A stretch of 64,000 bases of DNA from Mayamaea pseudoterrestris (GCA_027923505.1 BROI01000003.1:496001-560000); one strand, 5' to 3'. Shown: positions 43,001 to 46,000, counted from the stretch's first letter. Notes: generated by a model from the sequence alone, not told the origin. Translations and numbers: made by a program.

Positions 43001-46000
43001 CAATGCCAACCCAGCGTCCTGCTGCTTCCTTAGTGTGGGGAAATGTCGGCGTCTCATCGGCTCCAGCTTCGTACAGGACTCGTTCCCAGAACTTGAACTG
43101 CAGGAACGGCGAAATGTCGGGTACTCGGTTGAAGGCGGCTTCAGTAGGGGTCTTCCAGTTGAGGGACTCGGTCGCCAGATTGTTGAATAAGGCGATTACG
43201 TACAGTGCGCATAGGAGCCAGGCTCCAGCGGGTGCACCCGTACGGTTCATGATGTTCTGGACTGATGACTTGACTTCTTGGATGCGACGCTCGGCAGGGT
43301 TCTGGTTCTGGTATCCGGGCTCGCTCTGTTGGTCACGAATTGCGTAGAATCGCAACAAGGTTTCAACTTGCTTCCCGAGCTGCACTCGCGAGTTATCGCT
43401 AATGAGCAAGTCGGGAGCGCCAATGTCTCGAATGAAGTCTTCGAGCGCCATGGGCATGTCACTCTCGGTTCTCAGTGGGTATCCCCTCGTCAGCAGACTC
43501 TTCTTGCCGACGAACAGTTGCATCATCTTGCATCCGCCATGGCCGCGGATTCCGTCGTTAAAGGCAGCTTCCTTGGAAAACCAGGTATCTGTCGCCGTAT
43601 CGTCATGGAAACGAACCACATTGGCGGCAGGGAATCGCGACTTAAAGTGTTGGCGAAATGGGGTGTGTGCCGTGCGCCGAAAAAGCTGTGTCGTATTCTT
43701 AATGGTGCGCTTGACTCGTTCAAGTGGCGTGTAGCCAAGGTAGGGTCGAAGCGCTTGGTAGTCAGGTTCTTGTGGCATTATGCGTCGTGCATTGGCTTGG
43801 CGCGTCGTATCAGCCTGATTGCGATCGACATACTGCACCACACGTTCCACTGAATTCATGTTGTTCCGGTAGGTGGCGTCGCCGAAGTCATCCATGCGGG
43901 CGTCGACGAAACCATGGGTTTCTTCCAATTCGTCGAGGTGACGATTAAACTCAAGTTCTTCTTCGTTCCATTCATTGTCCAAGTCCGCCGGATCCCAAAG
44001 GGTGTCCGCAGAGAAAATGACCGTCGGATACATTTCCAACTCTGCGTTTTCGAGGCAAACCGTCGCGGATCGCCAAGGGGATGGTCTTGCCACAACTGGT
44101 GACAATGGCTTGTGTTCCATTCTGGGAGCGAGCAACGTCGTCGATCAGATGGCCGAACGAACGAAGCTGCGATGGTGCATGAATGGATTCAGCACCGTCG
44201 TGCAAAGCATACTGGTTGAACTGACCGATAATGGGTCCAGTCTGAGTCTCAATCAATGCGACGCCAGTTCCGACTTCGGAAGTGCACCGTGTGGTCGCTC
44301 AACCTGTCACGTTACACGTGTGGTTGGTAGTACTCAAGATTCTATGCCTTCCGCGAGTCCACACGTTCGCACCGCCGTCAATCAGCGATCCTTGGCGGGT
44401 CGTGTTGCTCGAGCTCGATTCACAATACGTAACGCACGATACCATCCTTCGGTATGCGCGTTCCTTCTTCCCTAAACTCTTGCTGGGTGTTTTCGCGCTT
44501 GGTGCAGACGACGCAGCGTTCCAGGAAGATCTAATCATATCATCCGGTGCACCTTGGTGGCTGTCGTCGAAGCCGTCGAGGGCCGGCATCATTCTGTCTT
44601 GTGCCAGGCACCGAGGCGGCCGCTTGCTGCTGGTTTTCGCGGTTGCCATTGTTCCCTTGGCGTCTTGTGGCTGTCTTGGACGGCTTCGCGTCGGCCATGA
44701 GCTGGCGTTTCGTCCTCGTTAAGTCGCGAGTGCGTTCGTGCGACGTTGCGACCAGGGTTCTGCAGCAACTGTTCAAAGTTCAGATAATCACCAGAGTGCG
44801 TTCCCGATGCGCTTGCGTACCGGCTGCTGGTAGTGGCGGCGGAAGAGCCTGGTCCTCGGAATCCGCGGCTCCTTGGGACCTCGTCGTCCCCGCGCGTCCG
44901 CCTTGGCCTGTCTCCGCCCCGCGGAACCGCGTCCTTCCGTCTTGTCCGGGTTCGCGTTGTTACGCGGCGGTCGGCGTTCTTCTTCTTGCCCTTATTCAAC
45001 TTGGCGTTCTTGTTGTCGTGCGCGGGCCTGCTGCGGCACATGTCGAAAAAGCAGTCATAATCTTCGTCCGGCGGCGTCTGGGTCACCATTGCACTGATGA
45101 TGCGTCGTCGTTCCAATTGCGCGTGGTCGAGCGTCGTGCTGTGGGGCGAGTTCGTCGCCTTCTTCGGGCCAGTGTACTTTCTTGTCATCCGTCCTCCGGG
45201 CCGGAACTCTTGAATTCTTCGAGCTGTTCGTGTGTTTAGGACCTTGTAGTGTCTTTCGTCCGTCAAATCCGGCTTGCGGTTCGTTCGCTTGAGGTGCTAA
45301 CTTCTTTCGCCGGAACCAAACTTGGTCCGAGTTAGCGATAAACGTCAGCGTCAGACTTGTCGCCGTACTTCATCAGGGCGGCTGGTGTCCGGGGGCTTCG
45401 AGACAATTGCGAAAGCGCGGTGTACCCGAAGACTTGCTGATTCTCGAATTCTAATTTCTCTTCTTCCGTGACTGTGCGTCTTGCTGCCGAGCACGTTTGA
45501 ACAGCCATGGAGCTTAAACGTTGTGGTGCGCTCCAACTACCCGTGGGGATGTTGGGAGCGTTTTGTGGTCCTTATCGTCTCGTTTCGTCTTGGGTTCGGC
45601 GACCCAGCATCTTCTTCCTTTTTCGCTTCTCAGCCTTGATGGTCTCATTTTCCAGTTTGCTGGCGGTCCGGCTGCTTCTTCTTGGACTCGAGTACATAGT
45701 ATCCTTCTTACGCTTCCGCGCGATTTCTTGTTTCCGCGAGACGCTTGGTTCGCTCGCTTGCCCTCAAGCACGCCCCTTTTGTGTTCGGGGTCGTCGTGTG
45801 GTAAACCATTCCGTCATCGGAGGACAAGGTTCCGTGGACTGCTGTTGTTTCGTCCCGCGGTCCTCTGCTGGGGCTAGTTGCTCCTTTTGTTAAGTACGCC
45901 TCCAGCGCTCTCCGTCGCCGTTGCTCTTTCTTCCCTCTCTTCCTGCTCTCGGTCAAGCAGCTAGCAAGACTGTTAATCTGACACGATAATATCAGACGAA

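Follow-up and report, generated by a model that had tools for sequence, protein, structure and literature searches.

A probable Copia primer-binding site that reads as the complement of a tRNA-Asn anticodon arm, in an alga-type lineage

Directly behind the 5' LTR of a Copia retrotransposon family lies a 15-nt site that is probably its minus-strand primer-binding site, pairing with nt 26/27-40 of nuclear tRNA-Asn(GUU), with a 5' half of that tRNA, cut in the anticodon stem, as the primer. The reading of the site as a tRNA-Asn arm draws on the self-complementarity of the stem, on conservation of the core in distant relatives, and on a fitting nuclear-type gene in sequencing runs that contain DNA of the window. 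Cleavage of the tRNA-Asn and the priming itself we infer by analogy with copia and Ty5. Half-tRNA sites for elongator tRNAs are rare but already known; the present one is, to judge from the sequence, another case, of Asn type and found in a whole alga-like lineage.

Two copies carrying the site lie in the window, by which we mean the whole 64,000-nt stretch of DNA that was analysed. Copy 1 is a bona fide insertion of a Ty1/copia-type retrotransposon, with direct LTRs, TG..CA ends and a 5-bp target duplication; because ATTAG is found on both flanks, the LTR ends are known to the base. The features are as follows.

46308..46312, minus strand, target-site duplication ATTAG, 5' side of copy 1
45979..46307, minus strand, 5' LTR of copy 1, 329 bp, TGACAC..GTGTCA, last bases ..CGTGTCA
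45964..45978, minus strand, putative primer-binding site of copy 1, 15 nt, GATTAACAGTCTTGC, complement of tRNA-Asn(GUU) nt 26-40
41541..44144, minus strand, pol frame of copy 1, 867 codons, RVT_2 at residues 737-862
40177..40505, minus strand, 3' LTR of copy 1, 329 bp, 100% identical to the 5' LTR
40172..40176, minus strand, target-site duplication ATTAG, 3' side of copy 1
20468..20796, minus strand, 5' LTR of copy 2, 97% identical to copy 1, ending ..CATGTCA
20453..20467, minus strand, putative primer-binding site of copy 2, 15 nt identical to copy 1, GATTAACAGTCTTGC

The pol frame of copy 1 encodes a Copia-type reverse transcriptase (RT; Pfam PF07727, RVT_2, E 2.3e-12, score 47.5 bits where the cut-off is 31.6), which runs on in a second frame (41540-41172, minus strand) in a part that scores below the Pfam cut-off. 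Since the RT is split over two frames, pol is broken, and as a polypurine tract is also absent ahead of the 3' LTR (other copies have one), copy 1 is not autonomous. Pfam detects no rve domain in the frame. Proteins that align with the part ahead of RVT_2, over 86-96% of the query, include P0007 and P0066, which bear PF00665; the N-terminal part of the frame is homologous to integrase-bearing Copia polyproteins. At E <= 0.001 the frame has 93 relatives, nearly all of them metagenome contigs, the best at 51% identity; the named relatives include one row, from the diatom Cylindrotheca closterium. Among the Atlas clusters that neighbour the Copia frame, the few with a recorded taxon are mostly Bacillariophyta. 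These taxa are weak evidence of a diatom affinity and the only hints of a place among the CoDi lineages, and we call the Copia lineage alga-type and the DNA diatom-like. The sole Rfam match in the window is a tRNA-Glu(UUC) gene (46466-46539, minus strand) 158 bp upstream of the copy 1 5' LTR and on the same strand; as a single case it gives no evidence for tRNA-gene targeting.

Copy 2 has undergone rearrangement, for the flanks of its 5' LTR and of the 3' LTR at 16209-15881 (TTTGC versus TGATC) do not form a target duplication. It has a composite structure (15881-20796, minus strand) of 5' LTR and site, a leader of about 1 kb, an inner 3' LTR, more internal sequence, and an outer 3' LTR; the inner 3' LTR (19487-19207) is 80% identical and has its own polypurine tract. 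Arrays of a 169-bp satellite occupy 23374-31461 (about 60 units) and 37497-39795, adjoining plus-strand LTRs of the same family at 31462-31762 and 37200-37498. About 1.2 satellite units also lie inside copy 1 (40506-40707), between the pol remnant and the 3' LTR, where they replace the segment that elsewhere bears the polypurine tract (AAGGGGGA at 16217-16210). A possible origin of the satellite is the 3' untranslated region of this Copia family, which it may alternatively have invaded. The window further holds an unrelated second Copia frame (6541-12507, minus strand; 1988 codons without stops; RVT_2, SH3_retrovirus and Pol_BBD), for which LTRs and a primer site were sought and none found, and frames for a Gypsy-type RT/RNase H and integrase (61206-63628, minus strand).

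Similarity between the copies ends shortly behind the LTR: 20448-20796 aligns to 45959-46307 and stops 20 nt past the LTR. These shared 20 nt, GATTAACAGTCTTGCTAGCT, start right past the last A of the 5' LTR, and the earlier note was right that the site directly abuts the LTR in both copies (from 45978 and from 20467, minus strand). The LTR end that it gave, ..GTGTCA, fits copy 1 (..CGTGTCA) but not copy 2 (..CATGTCA). It had also remarked that the usual TGG.. match to a tRNA 3' CCA end is missing, and indeed there is no TGG in the 34 nt after either 5' LTR, so that pairing with a CCA end is impossible there; priming from a tRNA 3' CCA end is ruled out on this ground. The window contains CAGATTAACAGTC at two places only, 45968-45980 and 20457-20469, each time on the minus strand; shuffled sequences give an expectation of 0.06, and 0 of 100 shuffles reach two. 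With LTRs 97% identical, the two copies represent one family and are not independent of each other.

The form of the site fits an anticodon arm. Nucleotides 10-11 of the site (TC) have their reverse complement, GA, at its very start, as the stem of such an arm demands. The full reverse complement begins, after a G, with the 5-nt stem strand CAAGA, continues with the 7-nt loop C-U-GUU-A-A and closes with UC, which pairs with the final two stem bases. In the tRNA the paired stretch would take in the 5' strand of the stem, all of the anticodon loop and two nucleotides at the start of the 3' strand, and Asn(GUU) is the sole reading with U33 and a purine at position 37. The earlier note's identification of the tRNA-Asn(GTT) arm stands, given this stem logic together with the conservation and the fitting gene described below; its range, positions 30-40, does not, the match being to 26/27-40.

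To see how far the site extends beyond this family we turned to 51 Copia-related loci (199,034 nt in total) from a collection of prokaryote genomes. An exact 13-mer consisting of CA plus the 11-nt core GATTAACAGTC is found in six of them (L003, L004, L005, L020, L023 and L026), always on the pol strand (about 0.006 expected by our own arithmetic). It lies 2.1-2.8 kb upstream of the integrase match, or else directly follows an LTR where the contig ends. Searching the five bins with the 11-mer gave 15 places, versus two for the reversed control: the six known junctions, four new ones (L062, L063, L065 and L066, with L062 and L065 following ..TATAA rather than CA), three bacterial-type tRNA-Asn genes (L052, L061 and L064), and two places outside any LTR context (L055 and L058). 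The core thus stands at the LTR end in 10 further junctions beyond the window, in relatives whose pol is only 36-45% identical, and so is conserved in distant relatives of the family. No LTR-leader junction was found in 39 of the 51 related loci, mainly owing to the shortness of the contigs. A longer block of 14 nt (GATTAACAGTCTTG), corresponding to 45978-45965 of copy 1, is common to nine of the 12 exact junctions, window included, with a 15th base that may be C, G, T or A; L004, L020 and L023 diverge from the 12th base on, beyond the 11-nt core. No relative with a clear CCA-end site was seen in a search with one published 12-mer, and a viral contig collection scanned with the protein and with alignment A1 yielded no Copia relative.

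A possible objection is that the resemblance arose by chance within one young family, which the mutual dependence of the window copies would allow. The survey refutes this, as the core recurs at the LTR end in many diverged elements of different assemblies, and we regard the chance of it as negligible. A second objection is that the block is a conserved cis element with some other role (packaging, dimerisation, or an integrase end signal), its likeness to tRNA-Asn being incidental, and that the element primes itself or uses a site further downstream. In favour of a downstream site, L003, L005 and L026 do have a TGG 12 nt past the LTR, and the TGG-type 12-mer of L026 is two substitutions away from the iMet 3'-end site of PMC5445492; this TGG is missing, however, from the window copies and from L004, L009, L020, L023, L063 and L066. 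The cis-element explanation would moreover need the stem self-complementarity, the register shared with copia and Ty5, the Ile-type site of a sister clade and the match to a host tRNA all to be coincidence, which makes it very improbable. We rejected both of the specific mechanisms that it might call on: for self-priming of the Tf1 type, the longest LTR stretch complementary to the 20-nt site is 7 nt, a length that 179 of 1000 shuffles equal or beat, and the downstream TGG-type site is confined to those three relatives and not conserved.

Several further features of the surveyed loci were recorded. L001-L051 sit in bins labelled bacteria, many of them in one Sphingobacteriaceae-labelled bin, and encode eukaryote-type Copia polyproteins while the tRNAs of the bins are bacterial; this has the look of eukaryotic contamination in the metagenome bins. 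The Asn-type core at L009:5492 and L022:4227 has one extra base (A or T) after GATTAAC, opposite the U33/G34 step, and these may be dead copies or show a tolerated bulge. On the minus strand of L066, at 674-745 and about 235 nt from the Asn-type LTR junction at 980-990, there is a tRNA-like gene whose anticodon loop is odd; ARAGORN calls it Asn and puts the anticodon at position 33.

Some relatives carry a related but different site. At the corresponding place in L034:311, L036:2638, L040:1283 and L043:2997 we found GTTTATCAGACC(C), in three of these after ..CA. Its complement again gives a stem, a loop (C-U-N-A-U-A-A) and two nucleotides that pair back, in the same register as the Asn-type site. 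The loop can be read as that of tRNA-Ile, with C facing position 34, which makes the sequence a candidate half tRNA-Ile site. An RT tree was built from 34 loci and the window, leaving out loci with a match of fewer than 200 residues (L019, L026, L030, L031, L032, L042, L048, L049 and L050) or with a stop in the match (L018, L029 and L036). All eight Asn-labelled rows fall in one RT clade (99/95) and all three Ile-labelled rows in its sister clade (99/99); as most rows of the tree are unlabelled, this shows that the labels are bound to clades and not that every member possesses the site. In the alga-type Copia lineage, the two sister clades would then each have a primer type of their own, Asn and Ile respectively, as a clade character.

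The site predicts a specific arm in the tRNA, CAAGA-CUGUUAA-UCUUG (the 17-mer CAAGACTGTTAATCTTG). A metagenome scan with this 17-mer found at least 120 stretches, from which 79 loci with 80 matches were examined; of these 80 matches, 44 belong to tRNA genes, of which 43 are called Asn(gtt) and the other is miscalled Ala, while the remaining 36 fall outside any such gene. Many of the matches lie in low-GC tRNA clusters of viral look. For the host itself we relied on five sequencing runs (X1-X5, from two studies), which share 0.97, 0.97, 0.71, 0.54 and 0.53, respectively, of the words of the unique window segment 46310-49300. X1, X2, X4 and X5 were compared with the Asn gene L089:1475-1547 as reference, which had itself been chosen by the predicted arm, making this test partly circular. 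From each of X1 and X2 came a single 418-nt contig that agrees with L089:1494-1540 at 46 of 47 positions. As the one mismatch is unplaced, it may fall within the pairing stretch, and in that worst case 14 of its 15 positions are confirmed. X4 and X5 gave no match to this reference.

Outside the aligned part the contig completes a gene. Its 5' loose end reads ..GCACCAT-TAGCTCAGTAGG, and on the 3' side the last aligned A is followed by TGGTGC, then G, then CACCCTTTT, which includes a T run. The 7-bp acceptor stem (GCACCAT / ATGGTGC), G73, lack of an encoded CCA and Pol III-type terminator mark it as a nuclear-type tRNA-Asn(GUU) gene. We assume that the contig belongs to the host; it could come from another eukaryote of the same culture. 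Aligning this gene to the site, as the earlier note had proposed doing with the host tRNA-Asn, gives a fit over nt 26-40: as the gene matches the arm-bearing reference, the site should pair over these 15 nt, with a mismatch at nt 25. Further, L067 carries two tandem eukaryote-style tRNA-Asn genes, each followed by a T run, whose D arm and anticodon arm equal those of the host loose end. L067 and L089 differ in the variable or T region, and the unplaced mismatch is therefore likelier to lie there. The bins G001-G005 yielded bacterial-type tRNAs only, with Asn genes that match the site over 11 nt, and no nuclear tRNA-Asn was found in them.

With half-tRNA priming the events would run as follows. 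The host nuclear tRNA-Asn, predicted to bear GCAAGACUGUUAAUC, would be cut on the 3' side of its anticodon stem, as in copia and Ty5, leaving a 5' fragment that ends at C40. This fragment would anneal by nt 27-40 (26-40 in the window family), and the element's RT would extend the 3'-OH at C40 through U5 and R into minus-strand strong-stop DNA. An end at nt 40 is the sole register that fits all junctions, because the nt 41 implied in L020 and L023 would be unpaired with the LTR-terminal A. The same point bears on a different account in which the site is a true primer-binding site but the primer is no pre-cut half. Either a whole tRNA-Asn or some other RNA with this arm (an organellar tRNA-Asn, for instance) would anneal through its internal part and be cut where it sits, by the element RNase H or a host nuclease, or priming would start from nt 41. 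Such an arrangement is compatible with the evidence in that this consists of complementarity alone; the U41 of a CAAGA-type arm could pair with the LTR-terminal A, and the 11-nt core is present in the bacterial-type or organelle-like tRNA-Asn genes L052, L061 and L064. Bacterial-type genes match over 11 nt only, however, against 15 for the nuclear-type gene, and the G implied at position 41 in L020 and L023 is unable to pair with that A. We hold this account unlikely and prefer a nuclear tRNA-Asn 5' half as the primer, from which small-RNA data are predicted to contain 5' fragments of tRNA-Asn with their end at nt 40.

In retroviral-type replication, plus-strand strong-stop synthesis renews the site by copying the primer, as far as the first modification that blocks the copying. 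If position 26 were a dimethyl-G, the copying would stop there in each cycle, and we suggest that such a stop could explain an invariant block of 14 nt with a free 15th base. tRNA halves increase under nutrient stress in diatoms, as described in PMC4247016, and PMC2806351 describes diatom Copia elements activated by nitrate starvation, so the supply of Asn halves could link transposition to nitrogen stress. The fullest form of the model, in which a deep alga-type Copia clade depends on tRNA-Asn 5' halves and its sister clade on tRNA-Ile halves, the site is rewritten each cycle up to a modified G26, and the supply of Asn halves couples transposition to nitrogen stress, is one that we consider quite improbable taken as a whole.

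The earlier note knew of no description of a tRNA-Asn half site for diatom CoDi elements, and we likewise found no description of the primer-binding site of diatom Copia/CoDi elements in the main text of openly accessible papers; in the CoDi paper (PMC2806351) the word 'tRNA' is absent and 'PBS' appears only as a buffer. Its broader proposal, that half-tRNA priming had moved to the elongator tRNA-Asn, is supported as a reading of the site, but as a kind of switch it is already in print for Ile, Arg-UCU, Lys, Tyr, Asp and Asn-GTT, in the sources compared below. The short list of elongator half-tRNA sites gains a well-supported case, in which the LTR boundary is exact, conservation runs deep and a tRNA gene of the presumed host matches the site. 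There is also a practical side, since pipelines that demand a match to a tRNA 3' end would drop such elements, and diatom Copia content may be under-counted; an LTRdigest filter requiring a tRNA-3'-end site is described for a diatom genome in PMC7466962.

The closest mechanistic models are Drosophila copia and yeast Ty5, for which PMC5371799 and PMC10886601 describe as primer a tRNA-iMet fragment arising from an internal cut. Like these, the elements studied here belong to the Copia superfamily and have a site that adjoins the LTR and would pair with an anticodon stem-loop instead of a CCA end; unlike them, the tRNA is not the initiator Met but, to judge from the sequence, the elongator Asn(GUU).

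Rust-fungus Copia/Helenus elements are described as using Tyr, Ile, Asp and iMet loops as primers (Kojima 2024, PMC10886601). A rule that half-tRNA primers all read ANN codons was dropped in view of the Tyr and Asp loops of this list. In the same account a tRNA-Asn-GTT anticodon-loop primer was chosen once by fungal Helenus, and the Asn-GTT site proposed here is likewise read from sequence. Helenus elements are, however, non-autonomous and fungal, whereas the present ones form an autonomous-type Copia clade with deep RT branches in diatom-like DNA.

Plant Bianca elements are given in PMC6317226 as using a half tRNA-Ile with I34, and Osser, Bryco and Gymco-II a half tRNA-Met. Bianca resembles our sister clade in having a lineage-specific elongator half-tRNA, the ..TTATCAG.. 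core of that clade fitting Ile with C opposite position 34; the sister-clade elements come from a different host kingdom, and their Ile fit is read from the site itself. Finally, the fungal Copia FunCo1 has the site ATTAAGAGTCT, assigned in PMC5445492 to an internal region of tRNA-Lys, and PMC4139406 reports an internal tRNA-Arg(UCU) for Candida gamma/whio, with iMet also found in Candida. These share with the present elements a site for an internal region of an elongator tRNA, theirs being Lys or Arg in fungal hosts, and the FunCo1 core differs from the tRNA-Asn core described here by one base, the one opposite nt 34.
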